Below are positions 23,552-50,221 of a stretch of 64,000 bases of DNA, piece after piece. The stretch spans positions 51,506 through 115,505 of the forward strand of contig CAZIFB010000009.1 in the NCBI GenBank assembly GCA_964538915.1. Reading direction: 5' to 3'. The number at the start of each line of letters is the position of its first letter. The first letter of the stretch is position 1. This DNA is from an uncultured candidatus Brocadiaceae bacterium. Its GTDB lineage: Bacteria > Planctomycetota > UBA1135 > UBA2386. Made by a program: the position numbers and the translations under genes. The notes beneath the pieces were generated by a model, which saw only the letters and a program-made list of their open reading frames with translations, made no database searches and had not been told where the DNA came from.

Positions 23552-25549
23552 TCAGTCGACGAACTCGAGGCTGTCGACGAACACCGAGCCGGCGGTGTGG
23601 CCGGGTCGGTCGAACCAGAAGTAGATCCACCGCACGTCGGTGAGGTCGGCTCCGGCGAAGGCCGACAGGGGCAGTCGGATCGTCGTCATCGCGCTCTTCG
23701 TGAAGTCGCCCGCTGCATAGGGGTAGGGCCAGGTGACGAACACGTCGGGCGACGGGATCCGGCCGAAGTCGCTCACGGCCACCGATGACGACCATCCGTT
23801 GCCCGTGTAGAGCGACACGCGGAAGTCCTGGTCCTGGCCGGCGACGTTCCAGGCGTCGAGGTAGTCCTGCGCGACGCGCAGACTGAGGTTCGAGAAGCTG
23901 GTGACGTCGCGCGCCGGGCCGACGAACGGCACGTTGGCGACCGGGATGTTCCACCCGACGTACGACGAGGATCCGGACCACTTGATGCGGATGCCGCCGG
24001 TGTCGTGCGGCGCCGACGGGTCGAGTTCCCACAGGTTGTCCTCGGCGATCTGCGCGATTCCGGACCCGGTGACCACCGAGCCGCCGCGGCTGTTCGAGTC
24101 CCACGTGCCGTTCTCGCAGTCGTCGACGACCCGACGAGGGTGGTCGGCGAACTGCTCGAACACGTCGATGTCGGCGACTCGGACCTTGGTCGGCTCGGCG
24201 CGGCCGTCGAAGTACGCACGGTACGCACTCTCGTTGCGGACGTGCCAGCGCAGGAACGCAGTGGCGTAGCCCTTCGCGACGTCCTTGTGCCGTGCGCAGC
24301 CGATCGAGCCGCCGTCGAGCACGGTGCAGCCGTCGAGGAAGCCGCGGTGCGTGGCGCCGTGGACGAACACCATGCTCTTCGTCAGATTGGCCGCAGGCAG
24401 GAGCAGGCCCTCCACCGACGCTTCGGTGCCGGCGCGGTCGTAGATCGCGAAGGCGCTGCGCTCGGGCTCGGTCAGCGGATCCTCGAGGCGCACGCCGCGC
24501 ACGTCGGGGTCGCGCGAACCGTAGATCGCCAGGAGCGATCGCGACATCGTGCCGTCGAGCTGCTCTTTCGTGTCCGTGCCCGTGCTGCCGCCGTCGGTCG
24601 GCGCGATCGACAGCACACACTTCACGTCGTACGGAATGTGAGCGAGGGCAGGTTGCTCGGCGAGAAGTCGCGCGGCGGTGACCGCGGCTTCGCCGCCGCG
24701 GCTGTGGCCCGCGAACACCACGTCGTTCGTCAGTCGGTTGGCGTAGCCCCAGTACGCGTGCAGGCCGTTCAGGTAGCTGATCGCTTCGCGGGCGCGCCCC
24801 TCGTTGCTGCCACCCATGTGCGCGCCGTTCGCGATGCTCGCGACCACGAAACCGTTGCGCGCGACGTGCGCGAGGATCTCGTCGTGGTCGTCGATGTCCA
24901 TGCCGTTGCCGTGCAGGAAGATCACGACGGGCAGGCCGATCGGCGGGCCGTCGCTCTGTTGGCACGTCGCCGACGGCCACCACACCTTGCCCTGGATGTT
25001 CGGCACGCCGTCGCCGCCGTAGTTCCACCAGAGGTTGCTCCAGTACGCACACGGATAGACCACGGCCGCAGCCGGGTCGGGCGTGGGGGACTGGCCCGGG
25101 AACTCGAGTTCGAGCCCGGGGCTCGTCGTCAGCGACAACGCCGCGTCGAAGGTGATGCCTTGGGCTCGCACCGTGCCGACGTAGTCGCTCGGCATGGTGA
25201 GGCTGAACGCCGCGTGTCCGCCGCCGTCCGAGGGCGCGAACCACAGGATCAGCGGTTCGGCGAGCAGGGTGCAGCCGACGCCGCCGAGCGGCACTGCGAC
25301 TTCCTGGAAGCCGAGTACCAGCAGCGCCGGCGCGAGTGGCGCGACCGTCACGTCGAACGCGACCGAGTGGCTGTCGTCGCCGAGGATGGTGTCGACAGCA
25401 GTGGCACCGACGCCGCAGCCCTGGCCGTATGGCGTGACCACGGCCGGGTCGGTGTACTGCGCGAGCAGCGGGGCCTGCAGGGCGCTGGCGGCCGCCACCG
25501 CGAGGAGTGCGGCTGTCCGCGGGGAACGGAACGGGATGGGTTGGTTCAT
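23552..25549 (-). CDS. Secreted alpha/beta-hydrolase (chlorophyllase/PAF-AH-like) with N-terminal accessory module
   Basis: Signal ending LLAQ; VIFLHGNG, GHSRGG nucleophile elbow, GSRDPDV, VHGATHRGF. Confidence 0.8.
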   Translation of the reverse strand: MNQPIPFRSPRTAALLAVAAASALQAPLLAQYTDPAVVTPYGQGCGVGATAVDTILGDDSHSVAFDVTVAPLAPALLVLGFQEVAVPLGGVGCTLLAEPLILWFAPSDGGGHAAFSLTMPSDYVGTVRAQGITFDAALSLTTSPGLELEFPGQSPTPDPAAAVVYPCAYWSNLWWNYGGDGVPNIQGKVWWPSATCQQSDGPPIGLPVVIFLHGNGMDIDDHDEILAHVARNGFVVASIANGAHMGGSNEGRAREAISYLNGLHAYWGYANRLTNDVVFAGHSRGGEAAVTAARLLAEQPALAHIPYDVKCVLSIAPTDGGSTGTDTKEQLDGTMSRSLLAIYGSRDPDVRGVRLEDPLTEPERSAFAIYDRAGTEASVEGLLLPAANLTKSMVFVHGATHRGFLDGCTVLDGGSIGCARHKDVAKGYATAFLRWHVRNESAYRAYFDGRAEPTKVRVADIDVFEQFADHPRRVVDDCENGTWDSNSRGGSVVTGSGIAQIAEDNLWELDPSAPHDTGGIRIKWSGSSSYVGWNIPVANVPFVGPARDVTSFSNLSLRVAQDYLDAWNVAGQDQDFRVSLYTGNGWSSSVAVSDFGRIPSPDVFVTWPYPYAAGDFTKSAMTTIRLPLSAFAGADLTDVRWIYFWFDRPGHTAGSVFVDSLEFVD

Positions 25550-25625
25550 GTCACGGGTCTCCGAGGACCCGTGCAGCGGGGCGCGCGCGGCGGAGCGGGT
25601 ACCGAATCCCGCGATTCGCGGTCCG

Positions 25626-26267
25626 TCAGTCCGCCGCGGTCCTGCCGAAGCCGCGCATGCGCAGTTTCACGAGCAGCTTCGCCTGGGCGTCGTGGAACGC
25701 CTGCCGCGCGGTCTCGGCCGAGGAGTAGCCGAGCGCCTCGCCGATCGCCGCGAACGGCGTGTCTTCCACCAGGCGCAGTTCCAGCAGTCGGCGCTGGCGC
25801 TCCGGCAGTTCTCCCAGCGCGTCGCGAACGAGCCCGGCGCGTTCGCCGAGCGAGGCCGCGAGCGTCGGCGTGGCCTCGCGCCGGTCGGCTGCGACGCCCG
25901 CGATCCCTGCCGTCGGCTCCGCGACCTGACGGCGACCGTCGCGGCGCGCCGCTTCGTGGAATCGCACGGCGTCGAGGAGCCGGTGCCGGACGAGGGTTCC
26001 GAGGTAGGCGCAGAACGGTCCGGGGCCTTCGAACTGCGTGTCGGCCAGGTCCTGGACGACCGCGGTGAGCACTTCGTGGACGACGTCCTGGGTGCTGAAC
26101 AGCGGCAGCATCCAGCGGTGACGCTGGCGGAAGTCCTGTTGCAGCGAGGCGTGGACGAGCGAGCGAACGCCCGGGAGGCACGCCTCGACGATCCGTTCGC
26201 GGGCGTCGCGATCGCCGGACACCGCGGCGACGATCGCCGGCCGCAGTCGTTCCCAGTCGATGTTCAC
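25626..26267 (-). CDS. ECF RNA polymerase sigma factor
   Basis: Region 2 (STQDVVHEV, YLGTLVRHRLLDAVR) and region 4 (LPERQRRLLELR...FAAIGEALG); GTG overlaps the upstream TGA. Confidence 0.88.
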   Translation of the reverse strand: MNIDWERLRPAIVAAVSGDRDARERIVEACLPGVRSLVHASLQQDFRQRHRWMLPLFSTQDVVHEVLTAVVQDLADTQFEGPGPFCAYLGTLVRHRLLDAVRFHEAARRDGRRQVAEPTAGIAGVAADRREATPTLAASLGERAGLVRDALGELPERQRRLLELRLVEDTPFAAIGEALGYSSAETARQAFHDAQAKLLVKLRMRGFGRTAAD

Positions 26268-27748
26268 AGGAACAGCTGCACCGGCCAGGCTTCGGCGATC
26301 TCGCTCAGCGACCCGTCGGCCGCGAACCAGCGAGCCGTCACGTCGAATCCCGTGAGCGAGATGCCGATCGGCACCGCCAGCGAGAACGTCTGCGGGTCGC
26401 CGACGAGCGGCGACGCCGTGTTGCGCAGGAAGATCGGGCTGAAGAGGTTGAGGTCGAGCGCGGGTCCGAACGTGAGGAACATCGCGGCGAAGCCGGGCCC
26501 GACGCCAGTCGACGGCGGCCACCCGATCATCCACGAGTCGTACCAGGTCGCTCCCGCTTCGCGGCGGCGGAACGCCGAGGCGTGGATCGCCGGCGGGCCG
26601 AGCAGGCCCTGTCGCGGCGTGCCGCACGACCAGCCGAAGTCGTCGCCCGCGGGCGGCGGAGAACCGATCGAGCCGATCGTCGGATCGAGCGTGCACACCG
26701 CGTCGACGTCGTCGTTCTGCGCCTTGCCGATCGACTGGCTGACCTTCGTCGTGCCGTCGGGCAGCGTCGCTTCCTTCGGAACGGGGATGCCGTCGGTGGA
26801 GAGGTCGTGCACGAGGAACTGATCGCGGGTCGTGCCGACCATCGAATACAGCATCTTCTGCCGCACGATGTCGACCGCGAGTGCGTCGATGTCCTCGTCG
26901 CGCGCGAGGCCCATCGCCCAGTACGGACGGAAGACGTGCGGCGGCGTCCAGGACCCCAGCGGCGTGCTGCGGAGCACGCGGTAGATCGTCGCTCCGCTGG
27001 AGAGCGTGGTCGACGGGCCGTAGAGCTGCCAGGAGACCGGGACGAGATCGCGAGTCGCGTGCGACACGGTGAAGTAGATCGCCTGCGGATCGGCGATCAG
27101 TGCGCCGAAGTTCGGTTCGACCGTCCCGAGCGCCGCCTGGTCGAGACCCAGCACCAGCGGCACGTCGAGCCCGTCCACTTCGTTGGTGCCGATCGGCAGT
27201 CCGAGTTCGGCGCGAGAGTGCGAACGTTCGACGACGCCCACGAGCTGCGGCGGCACGCTGCTGCCCGGGAAGATCCACGAGAACAGCGTCGTGCCGATGT
27301 CGCCGAGCGCCGCCTGTTGCGCGATGCGCGAAGGGCCTTGCGAGCCAGAGCCGGCGACGCCGGTTGCCCCCACACGCATCGAGAACGACATGACGGCCCA
27401 CGAACTCGCTTCGACCGCCATCACGCCGTTGCCGTCGAACAACACGTCGTCGCGGCCGGTGCTGATGTCGTCGACGTCGAGCCCCGGCGGCGCACCGTTG
27501 GCGGCGAGTATGGCCGCGAGATCCGGCGCGTTCGGGGCGGCCGGGAACGCGATCGTCGGCGCGAGCGAGAAACCGTTCCGGTGGACGCGGGTCGCCGCGT
27601 CCGTGCCCGGCGAAACGCCGCCGTCGACGAGGATCGCCGCCGGTGCGCCTGCGAGGACTCCGCGGCTCCCGATCTGCGCGGCGACGGTGCCGGTCAGCAT
27701 GGGCAGCAAGAGCACCACGGAGGTGCGACGGACGGGAAGGCATCGCAT
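26264..27748 (-). CDS. Secreted hypothetical protein (beta-rich repeats plus C-terminal accessory module)
   Basis: Signal ending VAAQ; repeated acidic D.D(A/G)(L/V) motifs (DVDDIS, EVDGLD, DIDALA, DVDAVC); start reassigned from the 1163-aa shadow ORF. Confidence 0.7.
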   Translation of the reverse strand: MRCLPVRRTSVVLLLPMLTGTVAAQIGSRGVLAGAPAAILVDGGVSPGTDAATRVHRNGFSLAPTIAFPAAPNAPDLAAILAANGAPPGLDVDDISTGRDDVLFDGNGVMAVEASSWAVMSFSMRVGATGVAGSGSQGPSRIAQQAALGDIGTTLFSWIFPGSSVPPQLVGVVERSHSRAELGLPIGTNEVDGLDVPLVLGLDQAALGTVEPNFGALIADPQAIYFTVSHATRDLVPVSWQLYGPSTTLSSGATIYRVLRSTPLGSWTPPHVFRPYWAMGLARDEDIDALAVDIVRQKMLYSMVGTTRDQFLVHDLSTDGIPVPKEATLPDGTTKVSQSIGKAQNDDVDAVCTLDPTIGSIGSPPPAGDDFGWSCGTPRQGLLGPPAIHASAFRRREAGATWYDSWMIGWPPSTGVGPGFAAMFLTFGPALDLNLFSPIFLRNTASPLVGDPQTFSLAVPIGISLTGFDVTARWFAADGSLSEIAEAWPVQLFL

Positions 27749-27804
27749 GGCAACGGAGCAGCGTAGCGGGCCCGTCGGATCCAAGGTGGAAAGGGCTGGC
27801 CGTA

Positions 27805-30348
27805 TCAGCGAAACGGGCGCAGCCCCGCGTCGATCTCCCGCTGCAACCGCGCCTTCAGCTCCTCGTCCCCGAGTGCCCGCTGGATGGCGACCCGGCGGAG
27901 CACCGCGCTGACCCATGCCGTTGCCCGCTCGTCGAGTCCGGTGGGCGGCAACAGGTAGGCGAGGTTCGCCAGCTGGTACGCGTCGTCGGGTTCTTCCAGC
28001 AGCGTGGCCGCGAAGGGTCCGATCGCCGCCAGCTTGTCCGACGACGTGAGCGCGAATGCGATTGCACGCCGTTGTCGACCGAGCACCGAGTTGCGGGCGC
28101 GCAAGGCCTCGTCGTACGCCGCGACCGCGCGGACCGCGGCTTCGCGCGAACGCTCGGGGTTCGTCTCCACCAGCGCCATCGCTTCGTCGAGCGCGATGCT
28201 GCCGACGAGGTCGGGCTGCATCCACTCTTCGCCGCGATGACCCGTCTTCGCGAGACCGTTCGCGATCTCGAGTGCTTTGGCGAGGTCGCCGCGCCGCTGC
28301 GCCAGTCGGGCGAGGCCCTGCTGCGTGTTCCACGCGAACGGCCGCAGGCGAAGGGCCTCCCGAAAGTGCCGCTCGGCGTCGTCGAGGCGGCCGAGATTCA
28401 GGAACGAGACGCCGAGGTTCTGGTGCGGCCCGTGGCGCTCGGGTCGGAGTTCGAGCGATCGCTCCAGTTCGGGAACGGCCTGCGCGTAGCGTTTCTGCAG
28501 GATCAGCGCGAGGCCGCGCAGCGCGCACGTGCGGGCCGTGGGCCGGCCGTAGATCGTCTCCAACGCGATCGTCTCGTCGTGCAGACGCTGCTGGACTTCC
28601 GGGCGACCGCCCGCGAGTTCTGCCCACGCGAGCAACCGCAGATCGCGGGCCGGCAAGTACGAGTCCGCCGCGCGGCTCAGCAGCTGTTCGGCACGCGTCG
28701 CGAAGCCCTTCACGTGCCGCGCTCGCAGTTCGTGGAAGCCGGCGACGTAGCAATCCTCCGGCGTCACCGGCGCCGGCAGACCGCTCGTGTCCACCGCCAT
28801 CGCGCCCGTGCGATCGGGGAGGAGACGGAGATACCGGTCGGCAAGTGCGCGCAGGTATTCGCTCCGGCCGTCCGCTGCGATCGTGTGCAGATCGTCCGCC
28901 GCGCCGTCGCGGTCGCCGAGGTCGAGACGAAGGCACGCGCGCCAGAGTCGTACGGGCAGGTCGGACTCGTCCAGTGCGAGGATGTCGTCGAGGAGCCGGA
29001 TCGCGTTGCGGTGCTCCTCGTGCAACGCCGCGAGCACGCGCTCGTCCGGCCATCCCTCGATCGCGAGCACGGAAGGCAGCGTCGCGTAGAGCCGCTGCTT
29101 CTCTGCGGCGGTCTGTTCGCTCCGCTGTCGCAGCAGGACGGGGCCGGCGATGGCGACGGTCGCGATGGCGAGAACGAGTGCGGCGACGGCGACGAGGCGT
29201 GCAGGCGTCCGGCGCCATTGGCGCCATCGGCGCTCGAAGGCTCCGATCGGCCGGGCCTGCACGGGCTGGTGGGCGAGGAAGCGATCGAGGTCCGCCGCCA
29301 GCTCGCTGGCCGTCGGATAACGCGAGGACGGATCGCGTTCGAGGCAGCGCTCGACGATCGCCCGCAGGTCGCGCGGCAACGTGGGGGCCGTCGTCGCGAG
29401 CGGCGTGGGTTCCTGGGTCGGCAGCGCCGCGATGACCGTCGCAGCGTCGCCCTCGTACGGCGGGCGTCCGGCGAGCAGGTGGTACATCGTCGCGCCGAGG
29501 CCATAGACGTCGAGCGTGGGTGACGCGGTGCCCGAACTCCCCGCTCGCACCTGCTCCGGCGGCATGTACCACGGTGTTCCGAGCGTCGTCTGGGTCGCGG
29601 TCAGGCGTTCGTCGTTCGCGCGCGACGCGATGCCGAAGTCGAGCAGCACCGGTCGATCGTCGCTCGTCACGAAGATGTTCGAGGGCTTCACGTCGCGATG
29701 CACCAGATCGCGGTCGTGAGCGGCGGCGAGGCCGCGTGCGACGTCGCGAGCCCAACGTGCGACCACGCGGGTCCAGGGCATCTCGTTCGTTCGGATGCCG
29801 AGCGTCGTCAGCGCCGTGTCCGGGTCCGAACCCGCCGCAGCCTCGAGGATCGTCGCGAGCGTCGCTCCCGCGAGCAGTTCGAGGACGACGAAGTGGATGC
29901 CCTCGGTGGTGCGGCCGCGGTCGAACACCGCGACGACGTTGCGGTGCTGGAGCGCAGCCAGTGCTTCGCCTTCGCGGCGGAAGCGCTGCTCGGCCTGCTC
30001 GTCACGGAACAGCCGCGCATCGAGGATCTTCACCGCCACGTCGCGCTGCAGTTCCTGGTCGCTCGCGCGGTACACGACGCCCATCGCGCCGCGGCCGAGG
30101 CAGGCGAGCAGCCGGTAGCGGCCGGCGAGCAGCAGCCCCGCCAGCGGATCCTCGCGAAGCGCTTCACCCTGAAGGAGCGGCAGCTCGGCGGCCAGACCCA
30201 GGACCTCCGCGAGTGGACGCGCGAGGTGCGGGTGGTCGCGGCACAACGCCGCCGGATCCACGGCCTCGCCGGCGTCCATCTTCGCGAGCGCCTGCCGCAC
30301 GTAGGCGACGAGGCGTTCCTGGTTCTCCGGATCGCGGGCGATGGTCAC
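27805..30348 (-). CDS. Membrane Ser/Thr protein kinase with TPR repeats
   Basis: GRGAMG, VAVK, HRDVKPSN, DFG, GTPWYMPPEQ; TM helix; TPR-like PELERSLELRP...HQNLG..A..HFREALRLRP. Confidence 0.9.
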   Translation of the reverse strand: MTIARDPENQERLVAYVRQALAKMDAGEAVDPAALCRDHPHLARPLAEVLGLAAELPLLQGEALREDPLAGLLLAGRYRLLACLGRGAMGVVYRASDQELQRDVAVKILDARLFRDEQAEQRFRREGEALAALQHRNVVAVFDRGRTTEGIHFVVLELLAGATLATILEAAAGSDPDTALTTLGIRTNEMPWTRVVARWARDVARGLAAAHDRDLVHRDVKPSNIFVTSDDRPVLLDFGIASRANDERLTATQTTLGTPWYMPPEQVRAGSSGTASPTLDVYGLGATMYHLLAGRPPYEGDAATVIAALPTQEPTPLATTAPTLPRDLRAIVERCLERDPSSRYPTASELAADLDRFLAHQPVQARPIGAFERRWRQWRRTPARLVAVAALVLAIATVAIAGPVLLRQRSEQTAAEKQRLYATLPSVLAIEGWPDERVLAALHEEHRNAIRLLDDILALDESDLPVRLWRACLRLDLGDRDGAADDLHTIAADGRSEYLRALADRYLRLLPDRTGAMAVDTSGLPAPVTPEDCYVAGFHELRARHVKGFATRAEQLLSRAADSYLPARDLRLLAWAELAGGRPEVQQRLHDETIALETIYGRPTARTCALRGLALILQKRYAQAVPELERSLELRPERHGPHQNLGVSFLNLGRLDDAERHFREALRLRPFAWNTQQGLARLAQRRGDLAKALEIANGLAKTGHRGEEWMQPDLVGSIALDEAMALVETNPERSREAAVRAVAAYDEALRARNSVLGRQRRAIAFALTSSDKLAAIGPFAATLLEEPDDAYQLANLAYLLPPTGLDERATAWVSAVLRRVAIQRALGDEELKARLQREIDAGLRPFR

Positions 30349-30378
30349 GGTGGGCGGATGGTAGCCCGCCCCGCGCCG

Positions 30379-33097
30379 TCACTGCGTGAGCTGCTTGCTG
30401 AACTCGACGACCTTGGGCCCGATCTCCTTCGGATCGAGGCCGAACGCGGTCTTGAAGTCGAGCTTGTCGATGGCGCCAGTGTAGAACGCGACGACGTAGT
30501 CGAGCAGCGCGCGGCGGTAGCGGCCGTTCTCGGTCTCGTACAGGTACCGCGCGAGCATGGCGGACTGTGCATAGAAGAGGGAGAGGCGACGTGCGCGATA
30601 GCCGGCTCCGAGGTGCATCGTGCTGGCGATGGTCGACTCGGTGGTCGCCTGCGTCATGCGGCCGAACTCGAGGCGCGACATCTTGCAGAGTCGTTCCCAC
30701 GCGATCAGCTGACGCGGAGCGGCCGACGCGACGAGGTCGGCGTCCTCGAGGTCGCCCTTGCCGAGCGTGGCTCGGCGGTTCACCAGGTCGAAGTCGAACT
30801 GTCCGATCAGGCTCGCGAAGCCCTCGACGATCCAGAACGCCCTGGGGCCGAGCATCACCGCCGCGGTGTCGGGGGCGGAACGCGGGGCACCGGTCCATCA
30901 GCCAGTGATGCGTCAGTTCGTGGGCGAGGGTCGGCAGCACGGACGCGAACCCGGCGTCGTCGGCCGGGACGTACAGGCGCGACTTGGGCACGACTTCGTT
31001 GAGCGCGCTGCCGTAGTAACCCGCCGCCCACTCGGCGATGTCCATGCCGAGCTTCATCGATTCGGCGACGTACTCGTCGCGATCGGGGTACAGGAACACG
31101 AGCATCGGGCGCGGATCCTCGCGAACGCGCGGCACGTCGGCGAACATCGCTTCGAGCGTGTCGCACACGGTCTCTCCGGTCGCGATGGCCTTGGCGATGC
31201 TGCCGGGGCGCGAGATGGGCGTGAACAACAGCGTGCGTCCGCCGAGCAACGCCTGGAGATCGGGGCGCCAGCGGTGCCGCCACTCGAGCAGCTGCTGCTT
31301 GTTCTGCGCGGTGATCGGATCGAGATCGCCGGCGCCGAAGTCGTCGGCCTTCGCCTCGAAGAAGACCACCTTCGTCCGCGACGTCGCATCGAGGAAGTCG
31401 AGCCAGTCGGCCGGGAGGAACGGCTCCGCCACCGGCATGTCCTTGGGGATCAGCGCGCGCACCGAAGCACCCGCGGCGCTGTGCGACGGCGCGCGCGCGA
31501 GCAGCCATCGGAGTCCCTGACGAACGGCTTCCGGCGTCCGCGACGTCCAGCCTGCGATCGTGCCGTGCAGGTCGTCCAGTGTGCCCGACGCGACGCCGTC
31601 GGCGGTGGCACGAACGGCCTTGGCCTTTCCTTCGTTCGGCTTCTGCTTGCTGTCCCTGCTGCGTACGACCAGGTCCTTCTCCTTCCTGGTCGCCCATGCC
31701 TCGTCGGCGCCGAAGCCGCGTGCGCGCGCCAACAGGTCGTCGGCGAGGTCCCAGTCCGCAGCTGCCGCCGCGTCGTCGACGAGCGGGCGCACTTTCGCCT
31801 CTTGCGCGGCGAGCCACGCCGTGTCGAGCTCGGCGCCGATCGGGTCCTCCGGCACGTCGGCGCGGAGGGCGAAGACCTCGTCGCTGCTCGCCAGCAGGAT
31901 CCCGTTGCGTGTCGGAATCGCTCGTGCGATCGGCAGGTCGCGACCATCGACCTTCTCCATGCGCCACAACATGCGGAACTCGCCGGTGTCGATCGCCGTG
32001 GCGCCGAGATAGACCGCCCCCGCGACCATCGTCGGCGGGGCCGCCGCGATGCGACGATGGAGGTCGCACGTGTCGAGGCGGACACCGGTCTTGCCGTCCG
32101 GTTCGATCGACATCAGCGCCGTTGCCTTCTTCGCCACCACGGCTCCCAGCTGGCGGGTGGGGTCCAGGCCGTGCGCCGTCGGGATCTCGAAGAGGCCGGG
32201 CACCCCGTCGCGCAGCGGCAGGTCGACCTGGAGTGCGTTGACCACGACGTCCCCGAGCATCTTGACCTGGGCCCCCTGCCCGCCACCGAAGCGCACGATG
32301 CCGCGGTTGCCGGCGAGCTGCACGCGGGTCTCTTCGCCGGGGTTCTTCGTGAGAGGGACGGCTCCGGTCGAGGATGCGACGGTGCCGGTGTCGCGCTCGA
32401 GAGCCGTGAGTGCGAAGTCGTCGCCGACCTTCTGTAGCGCGAAGACGTGGTTGTCCAGCAGCGACAGCGGACCGGAGAACACGCCCGATTTGCTTCGCCA
32501 CAGCACGCGGAAGTCGGCCACGCGCATGCACACGACCTGCCCGGCCACGACGGTCCACATCTTGGTCCCGAGGCGAAGGGGCGCGCCGACTCCCTTGGTC
32601 GTGGGGGTGCGCGCTAGGAAGTCCACTCTCTTCGCATTGATGCGCAGCGTCTCGAGGCCGTCCGGCCCCGAACGCCAGAGGATCTCGTTGCCCCAGAGCG
32701 ATGGACTCGGATCCGCCGCCGACTCCATCACACGCGGCGCCCCGACGAGCTTTCCGTCGACGAGTCGGCGAACTTCGATCGCGCGCTTCTTCTCGTTGAC
32801 ACGCACCGCGAGCACCACGTGTTCGTCCCAGACGAGCGGTTCTCCGACGATCGTGCCGCCGACCTTCTGCGACCACGCGAGGCGCGGGCGACGCAGCAAC
32901 GGCGCCGCCGCCGACCACCCGTTCCGAGCCGTGTTCCCGCCTTCGACGTACCACCGGCCCGCGGCCGTGCACTCCCCGTCGCGCGGAGCGACCGCCTTCG
33001 GCCTCGGCTTCTCCTTCGCCGGGGCGGCTGGCGGCGCCTGGCCAGGGAGATGAAGGGCCAAGGCGAGAACGAGCAGTCCTGCGTGTCCCGTGCGCAT
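30379..33097 (-). pseudogene. Secreted PQQ-like beta-propeller plus gluzincin metallopeptidase, split by a 1-nt frameshift (real or sequencing error)
   Basis: Signal ending LPGQ; GGNTARNG..A..P propeller start; AHELTHHWL in one frame and FWIVEGFA in the next; removing one G from GGGGG at 30871-30875 gives continuous FRPDTAAVMLGPRAFWIVEG. Confidence 0.8.
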
Positions 33098-33345
33098 GCG
33101 CCGGATGCTAGTGCGCACTCGCGCCGAATCCGCCGTCGCGTCCGCACGCGGGCACCGCGTGCGGCCGTAGGTCTTCGTGCGCAGGCGGAGCGCGGCCGCG
33201 TGTCAGCCTGACAGGCGGGTCGCGGCGGACCTGACAGCTGCGCGGACCCCGGCGCCGGGGCACCCCCGTGCCGCCGGGGTCCGGCGATCGGTACACCTTG
33301 TGCTTTCGGCGCGGCCCCGGACGCGGCGTCCGGAGGAGGAACCGC

Positions 33346-36692: not shown

Positions 36693-37946
36693 TCAGAGCG
36701 AGTAGAAGCGAGCTTCGAGGTTCGACAGGCGGATGTCGCCGTTGGGGTCGAACGTCGCGAACTGCATGTAGAACGGGAACGGCACGGGGCCGCCGAACAG
36801 CGCGAGCGGCACGAAGCCGAACTGGAACTGACCGGCCGGGTCCAGCTGCCCGGCGACGAACGCCGCAGTGGGGAGGTCGACCAGGAGAGCGCCCACGAAC
36901 GGTGCGCCCAGCTCCGTGTAGGAAGGCGTCAGCCCGAACAGGAACGCGAACGGCGCGGATGGCGCCAAGCCGTCGCACATGATCGTGACCGGCTGCGTCG
37001 AGTCCGTTTCGCCGGACGGCAGGGGCGTCGACGCGAAGACGAGTCGCGGCATCGCGGGGGCGTTGAGCGTCACCGGTCCGAAAACCTGGCCCGACAGCGG
37101 CACCGGTCCATGGACCGTCACTTCGGAGACCGGGTAGAAGCGTTCGTTCGTCAGGCGGACCGCTGCGCCGGGGAAGGCGCCGCCCGCCGTGATGACATCC
37201 GCGGTGCCACCGCTGATCAGGAGACGCGAGTCGTTGCGCACGAAGATCGCGTCACCACCGAGTCCGATGAGGAAGCCAGGCGGCGCGCTGTTCCCGGCGA
37301 TGATGCGGGTGTCCGCGACGCGTGCTCGTGACGAATCGACGACTGCCAGACCCGACCCTCCGGTGCGAGAGCCCGGACCGCTGAACACTCCGGTGATGCT
37401 CCCGCCGAGGATGTCGCAGTCCATGGCGCTGAACTCGCCTCCCTGCACGGTGATCGCGTTGCCGCCGGTCATCGGTCCGCCGAACGGCGGTGGTGGCGGC
37501 GGGCCGATCGCGTCGCCGCCGACGAACCGGCAACGCAGCGCGAACACCTCGGAGAAGCCGCTGACGATCAGTGCGTTCGTACCGTTGAACGCCTGGTTGA
37601 TGCCGACGATCTCGCAGTCGGTCAGCGTCACGTGTGCGGCGTTGTTCGCCCAGAGGTTGCCGTGGATCGTCATGCCGCTGAACACGTCGACCGTGCCTGC
37701 GGGCGTTTGCGTCACGCCATGGGAAGATCCGTTCACGATCGTCGCGCCGATGCCCGCGCCACGGATCGTCAGCGTGCGGCCCGTCATCGCGAACGTCGAG
37801 TACGACCCAGCGCGCACGAGGATCGTGTCGCCATCCGCTGCGGCGGCGATCGCGGCGGGCAGGTCGGTGAAGTGGGAGCCGGGACCGGCTGCTGCGTCGA
37901 CGATCCACGTCATCGGCAGCAACCCCAGAGCGAGTGCGGTGAGCAT
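36693..37946 (-). CDS. Secreted right-handed beta-helix (pectin-lyase-like) protein with C-terminal module; paralog of 48980-50221
   Basis: WIVDAAAGPGSHFTDLPAAIAAAADGDTILVRAGSY start; Gly-rich beta-helix turns; ends IRLSNLEARFYSL. Confidence 0.75.
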   Translation of the reverse strand: MLTALALGLLPMTWIVDAAAGPGSHFTDLPAAIAAAADGDTILVRAGSYSTFAMTGRTLTIRGAGIGATIVNGSSHGVTQTPAGTVDVFSGMTIHGNLWANNAAHVTLTDCEIVGINQAFNGTNALIVSGFSEVFALRCRFVGGDAIGPPPPPPFGGPMTGGNAITVQGGEFSAMDCDILGGSITGVFSGPGSRTGGSGLAVVDSSRARVADTRIIAGNSAPPGFLIGLGGDAIFVRNDSRLLISGGTADVITAGGAFPGAAVRLTNERFYPVSEVTVHGPVPLSGQVFGPVTLNAPAMPRLVFASTPLPSGETDSTQPVTIMCDGLAPSAPFAFLFGLTPSYTELGAPFVGALLVDLPTAAFVAGQLDPAGQFQFGFVPLALFGGPVPFPFYMQFATFDPNGDIRLSNLEARFYSL

Positions 37947-42610: not shown

Positions 42611-42751
42611 GCGGCTCGCTCGAGCGGGCGGCCGCGCCGATGCCGCGCGATGCGCGGCAGCCCGGTTCCCGGTGCTGGTGGCGAGGGGCGCCGGTGGATT
42701 CTCGGGTTCTTTCCGTACATTCCGGCCAGCCCGGGCATCCACCGAGCGCCG

Positions 42752-45700
42752 ATGCTCCCGACCGACGTCCAGCTCTTCCGCCGCTACGCGACGGCCGCCG
42801 ATCGCGCCGCACTGGACGAGCTGTTCGGCCGCCACTACGCGGCCGTGCTCCGCCTCGCCGCGAAGCTCCTGCCCGAGCCCGCCGACGCCGCGGATGTCGC
42901 TCAGTCGACGTTTCTCGCCGCCATCCGCGCCGGCCGAGACGCGCTCCCGACCGATTCCTTCCGCGCGTGGCTGCTCGGGATCGCCGTCAACGAGGTGCGG
43001 CAGTTTCTCCGCACGCGACGCCGCCAGCGTCGCGATCCGCTGGCCGAGGTCGTGCGTGCTGCTGCGGACGACCTCGTTCCGGACGCCGCCGCGCGCCGCG
43101 AATTCGAACGCGCGCTGGAAGACTCGCTGCGTCTCCTGCCCCAGCACCTGAAAGAACCCGTAGCGCTCCACTTCTACGAAGCGCTGCCGCTCGCCGACGT
43201 AGCCGCCGTGCTGGGCCTGCCGAAGAGCACCGTGCAGACCCGCATCACCGCCGCGGTCGAGCGTGTGCGCCGGTCCCTGCGCCGCGCGGGCCACGCCGCC
43301 CTCGTGCCGTTGTTCGACGCCCGCATCACCATCCCCGCGCCCGCGAACGCCGCCGCCGGCCTCAGCCATCTGCTCGCCTGGACCATGTCCACCAAGCTCC
43401 CCGTCGTCGCCGGCGTCGCGATCCTCGTTGCCGGACTCTTCGCCCTCGTCGCGATCTGGCCTCCTGCACCGGCACCCGAACAACGCACCAGCGCGAGCAC
43501 GCCGGACGCCGCGAGTGCATCACCGCTGCTCGTGGTCGGCGACCAGGTGGCACCGAGCCGGGTGCCCGACGCGCTCACCGCCGCCGGTGACGTCGCGCGC
43601 GAAGTCTTCGGTCTGGTCCTGCGCGAAGGCGGCGAACCGATCGTCGGGGCGACCGTGCGCCTGTTCGACTATGCCGCCGACCGCACCGAAGACGCGCTCA
43701 CGGACTCCGGCGGCCGTTTCCGCTTCGCCAGCACCCGGGATCGCGACGGCGTTTTCCACCTCGTCGCCGAGAAGTCCGGCAGCGGTCGCCGCACGGTCGC
43801 CGACGTGATCGCGTCCCTGCAACCGCTGCGCTGCGTCCTCCAGTCGGACCTGACGATCCGCGGCCGCGTCGTGGATGCCGTCGGCGGCGGACCCATCGCG
43901 GCGTTCACGGTCGAGGCGGTGCGCCTGCCGTTCCAGCGCGAAGCCGACTGGGATCCGGCCCTCGTGCTGCATCGCCAGAGTCTGCCCGCGAGGCTGCTCG
44001 TCGATCGGCGCGCCGAAGTGGTCGACCCGGACGGCCGCTTCGAACTGCCCGACCTCGAGACGGGCCGCTACCTGCTCGTCGTCACCACCGAGGGTCGCCA
44101 GCCGGTGTCCTTCGCAGCGGGTGGTCGCTCCTGGGATCGCTTCGCCGGCGTCGAGGCGCTGCCGCGCGCGGCGGCAACCGAGCACACCATCGTGCTACCC
44201 GTGCCCGGCCACATCGTCGTGCAGGCCGTGGAGGCGGCGAACGGCACCCCGATCGCCGGCGCCACCGTGCGTCTGGACTGCGCGTTCGGCGATCTGGCGT
44301 TCCCGTGCACCGCGACGACGACCGATGGCGACGGACGTGCCGTCGTGTCCGTCGCGCTGGATGCGCGCGGCGGGATCGAGGACGTCGCGCTGACCGTGAG
44401 TGCGCCGGGCCTTGCACCGGCGAGCACCAGCTTCAGCGGCCAGGAGAACGGTTTCACCATCACCCTCGCACTCGCGCGCCCGGCGGCGCTGCACGGCCGC
44501 GTGCTCGGTGCCGATGGCGCGCCGGTGTCCGGCGCCGCGATCCTGGTCGAACGCGTCGTCGATCGCACGCTGCTCCGGCGGGCGCGCAGCGACGCCGACG
44601 GGCGCTACGCCATCGCCGGCCTGCACGCCGCGAGTGCAACCACGCTGCACTGCCTGTCGCCGGCACTCGACCACGTCACCGCCACACTGCCGCTGAAGCT
44701 CGAGGACGGCGAGACGCGCTACCTCGACATCGACCTGCGCGGAGCCGCCGGCGTCGTCGGGAGAGTGGCGGTCGGCGGTGTTCAGGCGGCCGGCGCGCTG
44801 GTCGCCATGCACGCCGAACGCGGTGGCATCCGCGTCGACTGCACGACGCGGCGCGACGGTGCGTACGCGTTCGCCGGCCTGCCGGAGGGCCGTTACGAAA
44901 TGACGGTGACCACGGAATGGCTCGGGCGGCAGCTCGCGTCGCGGACACCGATCGAGGTCGGCCTCGCCATGCAGGAGCGCGACTTCGATTTCGCGCAACG
45001 CGTGACCGGCCGCGTCGTCGCCGTGGCGGCGGGCGGTCGGGAGGCGCCGCAGGCGCCGGGGGCCGAGGTCGTGGCGACGCACCTCACCGATCGGACCACG
45101 ATCGAGGTCGACGCGGAGGACGACGGCAGCTTCGCGGTGCTGCTCGCGGCGCCCGGCCCATGGGAACTGCACGCGCAGCGCGGCGACGAGACGTTCCCGG
45201 TGCGCCCGCAGCGGATCGAGGTCCGCGACGGGGCGGCGATCGACGGTGTCGAACTCCTGTTCGCCTCGGATCCCGCCGACGGTCGCATCGAGGTGCGTTT
45301 CGTCGACGCGAAGAGCGGCGCGCCCGTCAGCGGCGAGCTGCGTTTCTCGCACGGTCGCTCGTGGACGGCCGCGAGCTTCGAAGACGGTGTGTACGTCGAG
45401 GAGAAGGCGCTGCTCGGTCGCTACCGCTTCACGGCGACGACGGACGAGCACCGGCCGACGCCCTTCGAAGTCGAACTGCTGCCGGGGCAGCGGGAAGTTG
45501 TCTTGTCGGTGCCGCTCGTTGCGGCGAGCGAGGTCGAGATCGTCGAGGTCGCGGCGGGCAGCGCGGCTCACCGCGCGGGCCTTCGTGCGGGCGATCGGCC
45601 GCGCCGCTACGGCGCAACGGCGATCCACAGCATCGCCGGGCTGCGCGCCGCGATCGCAGCGCACCCGGGGCCGACGACTCTCGCGGTCCTTCGCGACGGC

Positions 45701-45763
45701 GCGGAACTCGCCGTCCCGGTGCCGGGCGGCGCGCTCGGCATCCAGGTCGAGAACGTTCGCTGA
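42752..45763 (+). CDS. ECF sigma factor fused to a TM helix, carboxypeptidase-regulatory-like repeats and a C-terminal PDZ domain
   Basis: AADVAQSTFL, FRAWLLGIAVN, DVAAVLGLPKSTVQTRI; TM VVAGVAILVAGLFALVAIW; repeated G.V....G.P(I/V).GA.V; VEVAAGSAAHRAGLRAGD. Confidence 0.85.
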   Translation: MLPTDVQLFRRYATAADRAALDELFGRHYAAVLRLAAKLLPEPADAADVAQSTFLAAIRAGRDALPTDSFRAWLLGIAVNEVRQFLRTRRRQRRDPLAEVVRAAADDLVPDAAARREFERALEDSLRLLPQHLKEPVALHFYEALPLADVAAVLGLPKSTVQTRITAAVERVRRSLRRAGHAALVPLFDARITIPAPANAAAGLSHLLAWTMSTKLPVVAGVAILVAGLFALVAIWPPAPAPEQRTSASTPDAASASPLLVVGDQVAPSRVPDALTAAGDVAREVFGLVLREGGEPIVGATVRLFDYAADRTEDALTDSGGRFRFASTRDRDGVFHLVAEKSGSGRRTVADVIASLQPLRCVLQSDLTIRGRVVDAVGGGPIAAFTVEAVRLPFQREADWDPALVLHRQSLPARLLVDRRAEVVDPDGRFELPDLETGRYLLVVTTEGRQPVSFAAGGRSWDRFAGVEALPRAAATEHTIVLPVPGHIVVQAVEAANGTPIAGATVRLDCAFGDLAFPCTATTTDGDGRAVVSVALDARGGIEDVALTVSAPGLAPASTSFSGQENGFTITLALARPAALHGRVLGADGAPVSGAAILVERVVDRTLLRRARSDADGRYAIAGLHAASATTLHCLSPALDHVTATLPLKLEDGETRYLDIDLRGAAGVVGRVAVGGVQAAGALVAMHAERGGIRVDCTTRRDGAYAFAGLPEGRYEMTVTTEWLGRQLASRTPIEVGLAMQERDFDFAQRVTGRVVAVAAGGREAPQAPGAEVVATHLTDRTTIEVDAEDDGSFAVLLAAPGPWELHAQRGDETFPVRPQRIEVRDGAAIDGVELLFASDPADGRIEVRFVDAKSGAPVSGELRFSHGRSWTAASFEDGVYVEEKALLGRYRFTATTDEHRPTPFEVELLPGQREVVLSVPLVAASEVEIVEVAAGSAAHRAGLRAGDRPRRYGATAIHSIAGLRAAIAAHPGPTTLAVLRDGAELAVPVPGGALGIQVENVR

Positions 45764-46099: not shown

Positions 46100-47227
46100 C
46101 TACTGGAACGCGAGTTCGATCGCGTTCGACAGCCCCCAGCCCTGGGGCAGTGTTGCATCGAGATACGCGAACTGCGCGAAGATCGTCGGCAGGCCGGTCG
46201 CGCCGGTGAGCCCGTCGTCCCAGAGCCAGGTTCCCTGCGCGTCCAGCAGGGCGATCTGGGCGTGGAAGATCGGCACGGGGACCAGAGTGCCGCCGAAGAT
46301 CGGGACCGGCGCGTTCTGGGTTCCGAAGGCGACGAGGCCGAGGCCGCCGGGCGGGGCGCCCGAGACCCGCATGTCGGTCGTCGTGCCGACGAGGTTCAAC
46401 GGGCCGCCGCAGGCGGACAGCACCGACGTTCCCGGACCCTGGAAGCCGAGGTTGGTCTGGCAGAGGTTGGCCGCGCGAATCGCGTCCACGTGGGCGATGA
46501 CCTCGCGCAACGTGACTTCGGCCGCCTGTCGGGCCAGCGTCCACGACAGGCTGCGGCCGACGTGCACGTGCCCGGCCGTGACGCACCAGGCCGGATCGGT
46601 GGGCGACTCGTGGATGTCCTGGTACCAGACGCCGTGGTACGCGATGAACTCGGAAAGGAAGCCGCCGCCGTTGCCCGTGTAGCAGACGTACGGATTGACC
46701 GGCAGCCCGGCCGCGAAGATCGCCGTCACGATGTTCTGCACCGGCAGCGTGCTCGGCCGCAGAGCGTCCGGCGGAATGGACCCGTCGGGCGGACTGCGCG
46801 TCGGCTGCGTCGGCGCCACGTAGTCGTTCGCCCAGACCGTGCGGTTGTACTGGTTCATCTCGAGCTCCCACGTGATCTGCGTGGACGAGCGCGAGAACGT
46901 GATGACCGCGATCGGTTGCAGAGCGTTCGCGATCGACCAGAAGTCGGCCGACGTGTCCTGGTAGTCGACGGTCAGGTTGCCGCTCCCGGTTCCGCAGGTC
47001 GTGCACGTCGGCGGCGAGAACTCGGGGTGGTACGCGTGGATGTCGTACCCGCGGCCCTCCCAGTTCGCGCCGATCCATCCGCCGGGGTTCTGCGTCGGGT
47101 CGGGGTTCCACTGGCGGATCGCTTCGTTGCTCGGTGGCCAGTAGCCGGTGAGCAGGATCTTCGGCAGCTGTGCCCGCGCCGTCGCGACACACAGCAAGGG
47201 GACGACCGCGATCGAGAGTCGGTTCAT
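46100..47227 (-). CDS. Secreted pyroglutamyl-peptidase I (C15)-like protein with C-terminal module
   Basis: Signal ending ARAQ; KILLTGYWPP, STLPVQNIV, GGGFLSEFIAY, AGHVHV; Ser at the usual Cys nucleophile position. Confidence 0.7.
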   Translation of the reverse strand: MNRLSIAVVPLLCVATARAQLPKILLTGYWPPSNEAIRQWNPDPTQNPGGWIGANWEGRGYDIHAYHPEFSPPTCTTCGTGSGNLTVDYQDTSADFWSIANALQPIAVITFSRSSTQITWELEMNQYNRTVWANDYVAPTQPTRSPPDGSIPPDALRPSTLPVQNIVTAIFAAGLPVNPYVCYTGNGGGFLSEFIAYHGVWYQDIHESPTDPAWCVTAGHVHVGRSLSWTLARQAAEVTLREVIAHVDAIRAANLCQTNLGFQGPGTSVLSACGGPLNLVGTTTDMRVSGAPPGGLGLVAFGTQNAPVPIFGGTLVPVPIFHAQIALLDAQGTWLWDDGLTGATGLPTIFAQFAYLDATLPQGWGLSNAIELAFQ

Positions 47228-47443
47228 CACGACGAGAGCCTCAGGGGATCCGAATGGCGAACCGTGCTCCGAGCGGCGCCGCACCACGCGGCGCCAGCGT
47301 GGGGCACGGTTGGCGGCGCAGGATAGCAGATCGATCGCCGGCCGAACTTCGGCGGCATCGAGGCGTGTCGTCGCCTGCCTTGCGTATCGCCGGCCGCACG
47401 ACGCGCCGGCCACTTCTTCGTCAGTCGGATGCCGGTCCTCGCA

Positions 47444-48268
47444 TCACGGCGCTTCGGCGGCCGGCGGCGGGAACACGGTCGACAGCCATTGCTGCCAGTG
47501 GTCCTTCTGCGCCGCGGCGGCGCCGGCGCGAGGGCCGTAGAAAAACGCCTGCAGCGTCGCCATGCACATGCCCATGCAGTCCATCGCGCTCGCGAGCACG
47601 ATGCCGGGCGCAGGCTCCTTCACGATCGCCATGATGCCGCTGCCCTGCGGGACGTTGTCGATGGCCTGCACGGTGCCGCGGAACAGGTCGCGCCCCGATG
47701 TGGCGACGCGCACCGGCTGGCCGATGCTCGGTGCCGGTGTGCCGAGGGCGTGCGCGAACACCTTCCACGCCGAGGGGGCGCCGCCGGCGGGCGGCGTCGG
47801 CGCCATGAGCACGAACGAGGCGGACGCTTCGCCGGCGTGGTGCGCGAGGTAGTGACGCAGCACGCGGAAGTACCCGGGCCAGCCGTGCTCGACGCTGCCG
47901 AGTTGTCCGTCCCAGTCGTCGGTGCTCGCGAACAGGCTGTGCACGACGCGAACGACGCACGTGCCGCCGGACTTCGCTTCGACGATCCACTCGGTCGCGA
48001 CAGGCGGTCCGCCTTGCAACCACGACGAGTCCTCGGCGACGAAGCGGTGCGGTGGCTGCCACTCCGTGATCTTCGCGGACGACACCATGCCGCCGCCGAA
48101 GTCGAGCGACAGCGATCCGCCGGGGCGGCCTTCGAGCTTCGTCGGGACGAACCACGACGAGATGCCGGGTCCGCTCGCGATCGCTTGCCACACCTGCTCC
48201 GGTGTGCCGGGGACTTCGACTTCGACTTGGACGCTTCGGCGTCCGGACGGCTCTTTCTTCACGCTCAT
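47444..48268 (-). CDS. SRPBCC/AHSA1 (START-like) domain protein
   Basis: VEVEVPGTPEQVWQAIA.GPGISSWF, ITEWQPPHRF, WDGQLGSVEHGWPGYF..L..YL. Confidence 0.85.
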   Translation of the reverse strand: MSVKKEPSGRRSVQVEVEVPGTPEQVWQAIASGPGISSWFVPTKLEGRPGGSLSLDFGGGMVSSAKITEWQPPHRFVAEDSSWLQGGPPVATEWIVEAKSGGTCVVRVVHSLFASTDDWDGQLGSVEHGWPGYFRVLRHYLAHHAGEASASFVLMAPTPPAGGAPSAWKVFAHALGTPAPSIGQPVRVATSGRDLFRGTVQAIDNVPQGSGIMAIVKEPAPGIVLASAMDCMGMCMATLQAFFYGPRAGAAAAQKDHWQQWLSTVFPPPAAEAP

Positions 48269-48294
48269 GGTTCGACTCGTGGTCAGGGGATCGG

Positions 48295-48870
48295 TCAGGG
48301 AGACGGGTGGGCGAAGACCACGACGCGGTGCGGGCGTCCGCCGGTTGCGTCGGCGTCGTGGTAGCGGGAGGCGAGGTCGGCGATCGCGGCCGCGAGTTCC
48401 TGGCTGAATGCCGCGCGATCGGTCGCGCTGCGGAAGCGGATCTCGGTGTCGATGGAGAGGGTCGCGAGGCGCTGCTCGGTCTCGAGGGCCCGGCGCACCA
48501 TGGCGCCGACTTCGCGCACGGCGCGCGCAGCGAGCGCGATCAGGTAGCTCGCGGACAGGCGGTCGGCGGTGCGTTCGGGCGTCGCCGCGGCGGGCCCCAT
48601 CGCGGACGGCGACACGACGTACGAGTTCGCCGTCGCGACGAACCGGCGCTCCGTCAGTCCGCCCCAGCGACGCTCGCCGGCCGGCTGCACGAGGCCGTGG
48701 CCCGCGAGGGCCTGCAGGTGGTAGTTCACCTTCTGGCGGGGCAGCCCGAGGCGCTCCGCCAGGGTCGCCGCGCTGGCGGGTGTCGACAGCTCGGCGAGCA
48801 GCCGACTCCGCATGGGGTCCAGCGCAACTGCGGCTGCAACAGGGTCTTCGATGACCTCGACGTCCTGCAT
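48295..48870 (-). CDS. ArsR-like winged-helix transcriptional regulator
   Basis: ALDPMRSRLLAEL..PASAATLAERLGLPRQKVNYHLQALAGHGLV. Confidence 0.85.
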   Translation of the reverse strand: MQDVEVIEDPVAAAVALDPMRSRLLAELSTPASAATLAERLGLPRQKVNYHLQALAGHGLVQPAGERRWGGLTERRFVATANSYVVSPSAMGPAAATPERTADRLSASYLIALAARAVREVGAMVRRALETEQRLATLSIDTEIRFRSATDRAAFSQELAAAIADLASRYHDADATGGRPHRVVVFAHPSP

Positions 48871-48887
48871 GGTCGCGCCAACAGATC

Positions 48888-48909
48888 ATTGACAAGAAAA
48901 CTTGTCAAT
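48888..48909. promoter_or_regulatory. Perfect 9-4-9 palindrome ATTGACAAG-AAAA-CTTGTCAAT, likely operator overlapping the -35 of the regulator gene
   Basis: Exact inverted repeat in an AT-rich patch 18 nt upstream of the regulator ATG; contains TTGACA on both strands. Confidence 0.8.
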
Positions 48910-48979
48910 AGCCTCGCGCAGATTCCAGCCGGGTGGAATCAGGCGGCCGGGGCGGCGGTCGGCGCCCCGGCGGCTCGCG

Positions 48980-50221
48980 TCACAGCGAGTAGAAGCGCGC
49001 GTCGAGGTTCGACAGGCGGATCGAGCCGCTCGGGTCGAAGACTGCGAACTGCATGCAGAAGGGCACCGGCATCGAGCCGCCGAAGATCGCCAGTGGCAGG
49101 AAGCCGAGCTGGGCCTGGCCGAGGGCGTCGAGCGTGCCGACGAACAGACCGGCCGTGCCGAGGTCGAGCAGCAGGTCGCCCTCCAGCGGCGCCGGCACCA
49201 CCGTGTAGCGCGGCTTGATGTCGAAGAGGAACGCGTAGAGCGCGGAGGGTGCGAGGCCGTCGAAGGTCACCGTCACCGGTTGCGACGCATCGGTCTCCCC
49301 CGATGCGAGCGTCGTCGCGGCAACGGTGAGTTCCGGCAGTTGCACCGCGCCTAACGTCACCGGCCCGGTGACCGTGCCGACGACCGGCGTTGCGCCGTGC
49401 ACGGTGACGTCCGAGGGCGCGGCGAAAGGCGCGGCGAGCACGTAGATCGCCGGCGCTGGGGTGAGGCCGGTGATGCCACCGCGCACGATGTCCGCGGCGC
49501 CGCCCTGGATCTCGACATGGCCGCCACCGTTGGCATACACGCCCTGGCCGGCCGCATGCAGGGCGTTGCCGCCGGTGAGTCGGCACGAGTCGACGCGCGC
49601 CCACGACAGGGACGCGGCGAGACCGTGGCCTCCGAAGTGCTGCATCAACGGGTTGTTGGCGAGGTTGTCACCGCCCTTCAAGTCACAGTCGCAGGCGGCG
49701 AAGGTCGACGACGGCCCGAGCGTCACCGCGGTCCCGGCGTACGTCTGGCCGACCCCCGACGGCCCGAGGCCGGATGCCGGAGCGAGCACGTTGCCGCCGG
49801 TGAAGTCGCAGCGTAGAGCGAAGACCTCGCTCTCCGACGCACGCAGGGCCGGGCTGCCCAGGAACGCCGTGGCGCTGCCGACGAGCGCACAGTCGAGCAG
49901 GGTCACGCGAGCGTTCTGGCTCGTCGCGAACTCGCCCTGGATCGTGAGACCGGCGAAGACGTTCACACCGCCCGCCGGTGTCGCCATCACGGCGTGCGAC
50001 GTGCCGTTGACGATCGTCGTGCCGACCCCCGCGCCGCGAATCGTCAGTTCCTTCGCGTTGATCGAGATCGCGGAGTAGGTGCCGGCGCGCACGAAGATCG
50101 TGTCGCCGCTCGATGCCGCCGCGATCGCCGCGTGGATGTCGGTGAAGTGGGAACCGGGACCTGCCGCCGCATCGACGACCCAGATCGTCGGCAACAGCAC
50201 CAGAGTGAGTGTGGTCAGCAT
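48980..50221 (-). CDS. Secreted right-handed beta-helix protein with C-terminal module; paralog of 36693-37946
   Basis: WVVDAAAGPGSHFTDIHAAIAAASSGDTIFVRAGTY start; ends IRLSNLDARFYSL. Confidence 0.75.
   Translation of the reverse strand: MLTTLTLVLLPTIWVVDAAAGPGSHFTDIHAAIAAASSGDTIFVRAGTYSAISINAKELTIRGAGVGTTIVNGTSHAVMATPAGGVNVFAGLTIQGEFATSQNARVTLLDCALVGSATAFLGSPALRASESEVFALRCDFTGGNVLAPASGLGPSGVGQTYAGTAVTLGPSSTFAACDCDLKGGDNLANNPLMQHFGGHGLAASLSWARVDSCRLTGGNALHAAGQGVYANGGGHVEIQGGAADIVRGGITGLTPAPAIYVLAAPFAAPSDVTVHGATPVVGTVTGPVTLGAVQLPELTVAATTLASGETDASQPVTVTFDGLAPSALYAFLFDIKPRYTVVPAPLEGDLLLDLGTAGLFVGTLDALGQAQLGFLPLAIFGGSMPVPFCMQFAVFDPSGSIRLSNLDARFYSL

Follow-up and report, generated by a model that had tools for sequence, protein, structure and literature searches.

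A predicted Ig-like beta-sandwich module at the termini of secreted proteins in a high-GC planctomycete lineage

Do secreted proteins with different enzymatic or adhesive parts share a terminal domain that could sort them to, or hold them at, the cell surface? This question is raised by a 64,000-nucleotide stretch of contig CAZIFB010000009.1 from an uncultured candidatus Brocadiaceae bacterium (the window, hereafter). In it, an initial annotation, made from the letters of the sequence, had described a module of about 100 residues at one end of five unrelated secreted proteins, encoded by genes which we call A, B, C, D and E (Table 1). The GC content of the window is ~70%, matches to its genes are found in metagenome-assembled Planctomycetota genomes, and the same DNA is contained in sand and bioreactor metagenomes. 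The segments quoted in the annotation were found where it had placed them, and all five genes lie on the minus strand. Here we examine whether the module is real, what it looks like, where it occurs and what role it might have.

Homology of the module in genes A, C, D and E

In pairwise phmmer comparisons, the C-E pair alone was linked (E 1e-46); C or E matched D only at E 0.3-0.5, and A and B gave no match. The five raw segments were aligned poorly by MAFFT and the alignment was unusable. A word-indexed database search with the module alone returned nothing useful (a 51-sequence module alignment yielded only two short fragments), and an exact look-up of the C product found no match. As pairwise tests linked only C and E, relatives were collected for profile tests. 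Thirty database homologues of C, ~400-450 aa in length, were obtained, and all of them possessed the same terminal segment. When a profile was made from the last ~125 residues of these homologues, D was the top non-self match in the window (E 0.009) and A was matched at the expected spot (E 0.23).

A hidden Markov model (HMM) of 151 family modules, from which both A and D had been left out, was searched against all 485 six-frame open reading frames (ORFs) of the window. It matched the C-terminus of D (E 2.6e-5) and residues ~60-138 of A (E 2.8e-4), the next match reaching only E 0.5. C and E scored E 1e-37 to 1e-39 with a family profile excluding the sequence under test, and the module of C was matched at E 1e-29 to 1e-55 across profiles. 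Aligned singly to the 151-module profile with hhalign, D was matched with 72% probability (P 3.3e-5; 30 shuffles <=0.8%) and A with 67% (P 5.2e-5; 30 shuffles <=2.1%). In the reverse test, an HMM of five A-type (Cys-containing) modules matched close homologues of C at 1e-6 to 6e-4. On HMM columns, the modules of C and E are 60% identical and all other pairs 19-27%. Two further leads in the window (7554-8315 and 54770-56740), weakly indicated in early searches, were lost with better profiles.

Taken alone, the non-significant pairwise searches (C-E excepted) and the poor naive alignment of the five segments would fit the view that there is no real shared domain and that the resemblance merely stems from the Ala/Gly/Pro/Leu-rich composition of a 70% GC genome. 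However, among the 485 window ORFs of the same composition the profile matched only A, C, D and E, shuffled controls failed, high-GC loci of other phyla gave no matches, the reciprocal profile search linked the module subtypes, and a confident fold was predicted (see below). Since profile matches were obtained in both directions, backed by shuffle controls and by the lack of matches in high-GC loci of other phyla, we regard the module, on sequence comparison, as a homologous domain common to A, C, D and E. Compositional resemblance is thereby largely refuted for these four genes, for which we find it scarcely credible, and is the best description for B.

As for B, a more diverged module had been suspected at the end of its product. 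No match was obtained with the module HMMs (several profiles, window ORFs). Homologues of B were found in loci L061 (93% identity), L014 and L062 (30-36%); when a C-terminal profile of this four-member family was compared with the module profile by hhalign, the probability was 0.2-0.3%. A greedy alignment of the B C-terminus with the module was colinear, yet not significant. Given the lack of HMM matches and the low hhalign probability, B was rejected as a diverged member at the sequence level, the suspected module being detectable by neither method. The proposal of five proteins with a common module thus holds for A, C, D and E, by profiles, and fails for B. To call the five unrelated was also an overstatement, as C and E are paralogues, with 52% identity over full length and 60% in the module. 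The annotation had named, as the result that would speak against it, a lack of significant alignment beyond the two paralogues; pairwise comparison by itself gives exactly this result, whereas the profile tests link D and A as well.

Fold, position and distribution

The last 112 residues of C were modelled (AlphaFold2, 21-sequence alignment) as a compact beta-sandwich of nine strands, with a predicted local distance difference test score (pLDDT) of 90.9. This fold prediction, proposed as a check by the annotation, was thus confident, and comparison of the model with PDB by Foldseek returned only generic fibronectin type III (FN3) and immunoglobulin-like (Ig-like) matches, with a best E of 0.02 and template-modelling scores (TM) <=0.5; among them were Ig-like domains of a surface-retained adhesin. 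The module had no match in Pfam, NCBIfam or PDB sequences, the database copies of module proteins are all annotated as 'hypothetical protein', and no relevant description of a planctomycete sorting domain came out of a literature search, in agreement with the earlier statement that the domain bears no known name. According to the model, the module, ~95-112 residues long, is a domain with an Ig-like beta-sandwich fold that had not been described before.

Several sequence features recur in the module: the motifs G-x-L-L-x-D and L-D-x-x-G, a Q that is almost invariant and lies in the region of the penultimate strand, and S-N close to the end. Two subtypes can be distinguished: i) a beta-helix-family type, often preceded by a conserved P-S-G-E-T-D coil, and ii) a Cys subtype, with [YF]GxGCxG at its start and another Cys in a G-C-x-L strand. 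The module of A (YGQGCGVG ... GGVGCTLL) belongs to the latter, grouping with loci L012, L021, L025 and L054. Module proteins end with ...SNLEARFYSL, ...SNAIELAFQ and similar sequences, i.e. with an amphipathic beta-strand, without a hydrophobic helix; in the module sequences inspected, the domain was followed by no trans-membrane tail, lipobox or known sorting motif. Within the C/E family, mean column identity is 0.62 for the module vs 0.48 for the beta-helix body.

The position of the module proved to be strongly biased towards the protein ends, as had been proposed. Among the sequences fetched here, 240 of 247 copies (~97%) end <=25 residues from the ORF end, and never was more than one copy present per ORF. 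The seven exceptions comprise three copies with a short additional tail, 40-48 residues long (L015, two ORFs; L051, one ORF), two apparent reading-frame errors (P0066 and P0125) and two copies located directly after a signal peptide, that is, gene A of the window and a Kelch protein of L037 (2447-4225). As the latter two directly follow the signal peptide, they are still terminal in the mature chain. The extra tails are Gly/Asn-rich (L015 14057-15793 and 15450-16958; L051 3-1079; …NHIGNYDPTA..GNYG.GN.GGGFIV.FTGVI.) and may represent an additional small element. A hydrophobic N-terminal segment was present in 108 of 116 full-length carriers.

An exhaustive profile search, made with a narrower first profile and with clusters defined at 50% identity, detected 275 clusters at E <=1e-3 and 87 at E <=1e-10, most of which represent a beta-helix family of ~400-470 aa. 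A genome scan was anchored on the full-length beta-helix family, so that its 60 loci are biased towards that family; across all profile runs, module matches occurred in 38 of them. All 38 were labelled Planctomycetota or were obvious mislabels of metagenome-assembled genomes, with 65-75% GC. The remaining 22 loci, including six of 68-75% GC, contained no module match, and high-GC loci of other phyla were negative. In the sample examined, the proposed lineage specificity is therefore borne out by 38 planctomycete loci against 22 negative ones. The cultured Rohdeia mirabilis Pla163 is among the positive loci, and in its genome (L019, CP036290 491447-512900) three consecutive genes, each ending in the module, form a tandem array. 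Rohdeia belongs to the Saltatorellus clade, and its reported GC content of 70.5% matches that of the window (preprint 10.1101/817700). So far, the family seems restricted to a single high-GC lineage of planctomycetes, to which R. mirabilis belongs.

Carrier proteins and their surroundings

Table 1. Module genes, module copies and neighbouring genes in the window
Feature	Position	Strand	Description
Gene A	23552-25549	-	665 aa: signal peptide in residues 1-31, then module, short linker rich in Pro, alpha/beta-hydrolase and a C-terminal region of no recognised type
Gene B	26264-27748	-	494 aa: secreted protein of unknown family, C-terminus without detectable module
Gene C	36693-37946	-	417 aa: short hydrophobic N-terminus, right-handed beta-helix passenger, C-terminal module
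Gene D	46100-47227	-	375 aa: signal peptide (MNRLSIAVVPLLCVATARAQ), passenger with weak C15 pyroglutamyl-peptidase likeness, module
Gene E	48980-50221	-	413 aa: paralogue of C, beta-helix and module
Module copy in A	25100-25432	-	residues 40-150, near N-terminus, Cys-containing subtype
Module copy in C	36696-37031	-	residues 306-417 of 417, C-terminus; coordinates confirmed by translation
Module copy in D	46103-46402	-	last ~100 of 375 residues, C-terminus
Module copy in E	48983-49318	-	residues 302-413, C-terminus
Kinase gene	2593-5391	-	Ser/Thr kinase
Sigma factor gene	25629-26261	-	extracytoplasmic function (ECF) sigma factor
Kinase gene	27805-30348	-	Ser/Thr kinase with TPR repeats
ORF	30164-33118	-	plausible secreted protein for ~750 residues, then Arg-rich nonsense
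Second frame	30379-30897	-	continues with protein-like sequence beside ORF 30164-33118; ORF at 30379-30858
Sigma factor fusion gene	42650-45763	+	1037 aa: ECF sigma factor (regions 2 and 4) joined to four or more carboxypeptidase-regulatory-like beta-sandwich domains, C-terminal PDZ
Kinase gene	50308-53523	-	Ser/Thr kinase with TPR repeats
Kinase gene	57317-60493	-	Ser/Thr kinase

The passengers of the module were found to be different, in line with the initial annotation. The beta-helix assigned to C and E was upheld: full-length C was modelled as a right-handed beta-helix followed by a sandwich (pLDDT 85.7), and Foldseek matched it to phage tailspikes (depolymerases), the polysaccharide lyase RbmB, AlgE4 and alginate lyase at E 1e-5 to 1e-3. 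The alpha/beta-hydrolase of A is likewise supported, as residues 207-331 match the Pfam family Chlorophyllase (PF07224) above its cut-off (E 1.3e-6, 27.9 bits vs 26 bits); weak PDB matches to lipase and esterase were also obtained. The C15 peptidase assigned to D could not be sustained, the scores for PF01470 (E 0.18, 12.2 bits vs a cut-off of 22.7) and for NCBIfam PRK13197 (E 0.074, 13 bits vs a cut-off of 199) lying far below the cut-offs; PDB sequences gave no match for D, and its passenger shows, in sequence, weak C15 likeness only. Elsewhere, an FG-GAP repeat protein (P0152) and a BD-FAE esterase with Calx-beta domains (P0170) were found to end with the module, and the other carriers in the scanned loci included FG-GAP and Kelch propellers, another esterase with Calx-beta and several large proteins without a Pfam match. 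With passengers as different as beta-helix, FG-GAP, Kelch, esterase with Calx-beta and alpha/beta-hydrolase, the module is a mobile domain.

Clear signal peptides are present at the N-termini of A, B and D; in A, the 31-residue signal peptide and an 8-residue spacer precede the module. The N-terminus of C and E is a short hydrophobic stretch ending VDA-A. In these two proteins and their closest relatives it comprises only ~12 hydrophobic residues, without a basic region (ML..L.LGLLPTTW-VVDA-A; window 37890-37946 and 50165-50221, minus strand), and more distant members of the C/E family possess ordinary signal peptides. If an alternative TTG start at 50293 were used, E would gain a basic N-terminal region.

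A search for recurrent neighbours of module genes found only Ser/Thr kinases and ECF sigma factors, both abundant in the lineage anyway. The four Ser/Thr kinase genes in these 64 kb all lie on the minus strand; in two of them the kinase is fused to a C-terminal FGE-sulfatase (formylglycine-enzyme-like) domain, in the other two to TPR repeats, and their number is consistent with the kinase expansion reported for that part of the phylum. One of the TPR kinases is located directly upstream of B, an order of kinase and B homologue that is also seen in L014 (11671-14502 and 14505-16004), and E is located directly downstream of the other. As a sigma factor gene lies between B and A, the order kinase, B, sigma factor, A occurs on one strand. 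Two further genes deserve mention. The large sigma factor gene of the plus strand looks like an unusual sigma/anti-sigma-like fusion. The first part of ORF 30164-33118 has no Pfam match, and the second frame that continues it has a GC content at third codon positions (GC3) of 0.91; there are either two adjacent genes here or a frameshift, which would mark a pseudogene or an assembly error.

Possible role of the module

One parallel is offered by the C-terminal domain (CTD) of the type IX secretion system (T9SS; Por_Secre_tail, TIGR04183/PF18962). This domain is a beta-sandwich of ~80-110 residues, phylum-restricted and present in one copy at the extreme C-terminus of signal-peptide-bearing carriers with highly diverse enzymatic or adhesive passengers, a description to which the predicted fold class and the usual position of the module conform. 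Unlike this domain, the module occurs in Planctomycetota, is sometimes located at the mature N-terminus and has no sequence or specific structural similarity to it: neither TIGR04183 nor PF18962 matched 21 module sequences at E <=5 or the five full proteins at E <=1. T9SS machinery (Sov/SprA, PorV, PorU and others) was absent from the genes scanned in the window, the only part of the genome covered. Dockerins of the cohesin-dockerin system and SLH domains are also terminal, usually single and non-catalytic, occur at either end and hold secreted enzymes on a scaffold or the cell wall, in keeping with the positions of the module. They differ from it in fold, a dockerin being a duplicated, helical segment that binds Ca and SLH a helical bundle, as opposed to the all-beta sandwich of the module; its all-beta model and the lack of a Pfam match set it apart from Dockerin_1, and no cohesin-like repeat protein was identified. 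PEP-CTERM, LPXTG and GlyGly-CTERM resemble the module in being lineage-specific and C-terminal on many otherwise unrelated secreted proteins, but they consist of a ~25-residue motif, a trans-membrane helix and a basic tail, as opposed to 100 folded residues; with no hydrophobic helix at the protein ends and no NCBIfam match, a PEP-CTERM/LPXTG-type signal was not found. Finally, generic bacterial Ig-like/FN3 domains are of the same fold class, yet they are usually tandem and internal, while the module is single-copy, terminal and without a match to their Pfam models.

We tentatively propose, with slightly more doubt than confidence, that the module is a lineage-specific envelope-targeting or retention domain, new to the literature searched. 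According to this proposal, the carrier would be exported across the inner membrane by Sec, the terminal domain would then fold independently, and the folded domain would attach to an envelope component, receptor or scaffold shared by all carriers. In this way, enzymes active on polysaccharides, esterases, peptidase-like proteins and binding proteins of the propeller type would reach the cell surface or be kept there. The logic would be that of SLH, dockerin or the retained form of sorting domains, although the module is none of these. Both surface localisation and binding of an envelope component are inferred from architecture only. Several observations weigh against the proposal. No receptor, scaffold, sortase-like or translocon gene recurs beside module genes, and neither a translocon or scaffold nor a cleavage site or ligand could be assigned to the module. 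The fold is generic, its best PDB matches being FN3/Ig-like domains at TM <=0.5 and E >=0.02, and a beta-sandwich present once at a protein end may also serve to bind substrate. The taxonomic restriction, moreover, is based on loci fetched with the beta-helix family and on the narrow first profile.

Two other explanations have to be considered. The module might act as a C-terminal secretion signal for an outer-membrane translocon, being recognised, translocated and then cleaved or covalently attached, as are T9SS CTDs. The extreme C-terminal position of ~97% of the copies, the size of ~100 residues, the Ig-like beta-sandwich and the diverse, enzyme-rich cargo would all fit. Nevertheless, we consider it unlikely: in two independent architectures the module is N-terminal in the mature protein, a position that would be incompatible with a C-terminal signal, and TIGR04183 and PF18962 gave no match at E <=5, no T9SS CTD appeared among the top 50 Foldseek matches, no candidate translocon was found in the window, and T9SS belongs to Bacteroidota and related groups. 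Since two copies stand just after the signal peptide, an obligatory C-terminal export signal becomes less likely and anchoring or docking, for which SLH and dockerin modules can stand at either end, is favoured over a role like that of the T9SS CTD. Similarly improbable, in our opinion, is a bolder form of the targeting idea, in which the module would be the cargo tag of a new outer-membrane delivery or surface-attachment pathway of the shapeshifting Planctomycetota of the Saltatorellus clade, unrelated to T9SS, with the same role and a dedicated receptor or translocon.

Alternatively, the module could be a ligand-binding or structural accessory domain, i.e. a spacer resembling Ig-like domains or a module resembling carbohydrate-binding ones, which has no sorting role and is terminal because shuffling favours gene ends. 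This agrees with the generic Ig/FN3-like fold, with the tolerance of both termini and with the many polysaccharide-active or esterase-type carriers, as such enzymes often possess one terminal binding module. On the other hand, carriers that are not enzymes, namely FG-GAP and Kelch propellers, are common too, the conserved residues are G, P, L, D, Q, S and N instead of the aromatic platform typical of carbohydrate-binding modules, and ordinary Ig-like spacers are tandem and internal, which the module never was in 247 copies. We therefore regard an accessory role as rather unlikely, if still worth weighing beside envelope targeting or retention.

As it stands, the domain forms a family that has no name but whose general kind, a terminal beta-sandwich on secreted cargo, is familiar, and the targeting or anchoring interpretation of the initial annotation is, as a hypothesis, reasonable. 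The delivery of enzymes and adhesins to the unusual cell surface of planctomycetes is poorly understood, and promiscuous, terminal, lineage-specific domains are the type of signature that exposed protein-sorting systems before. As a cultured carrier, R. mirabilis Pla163, exists, the targeting idea is directly testable. Even if the role of the module turned out to be simple binding, the profile names and bounds a domain hidden in hundreds of 'hypothetical proteins', and it marks the likely surface or secreted proteome in these metagenome-assembled genomes.

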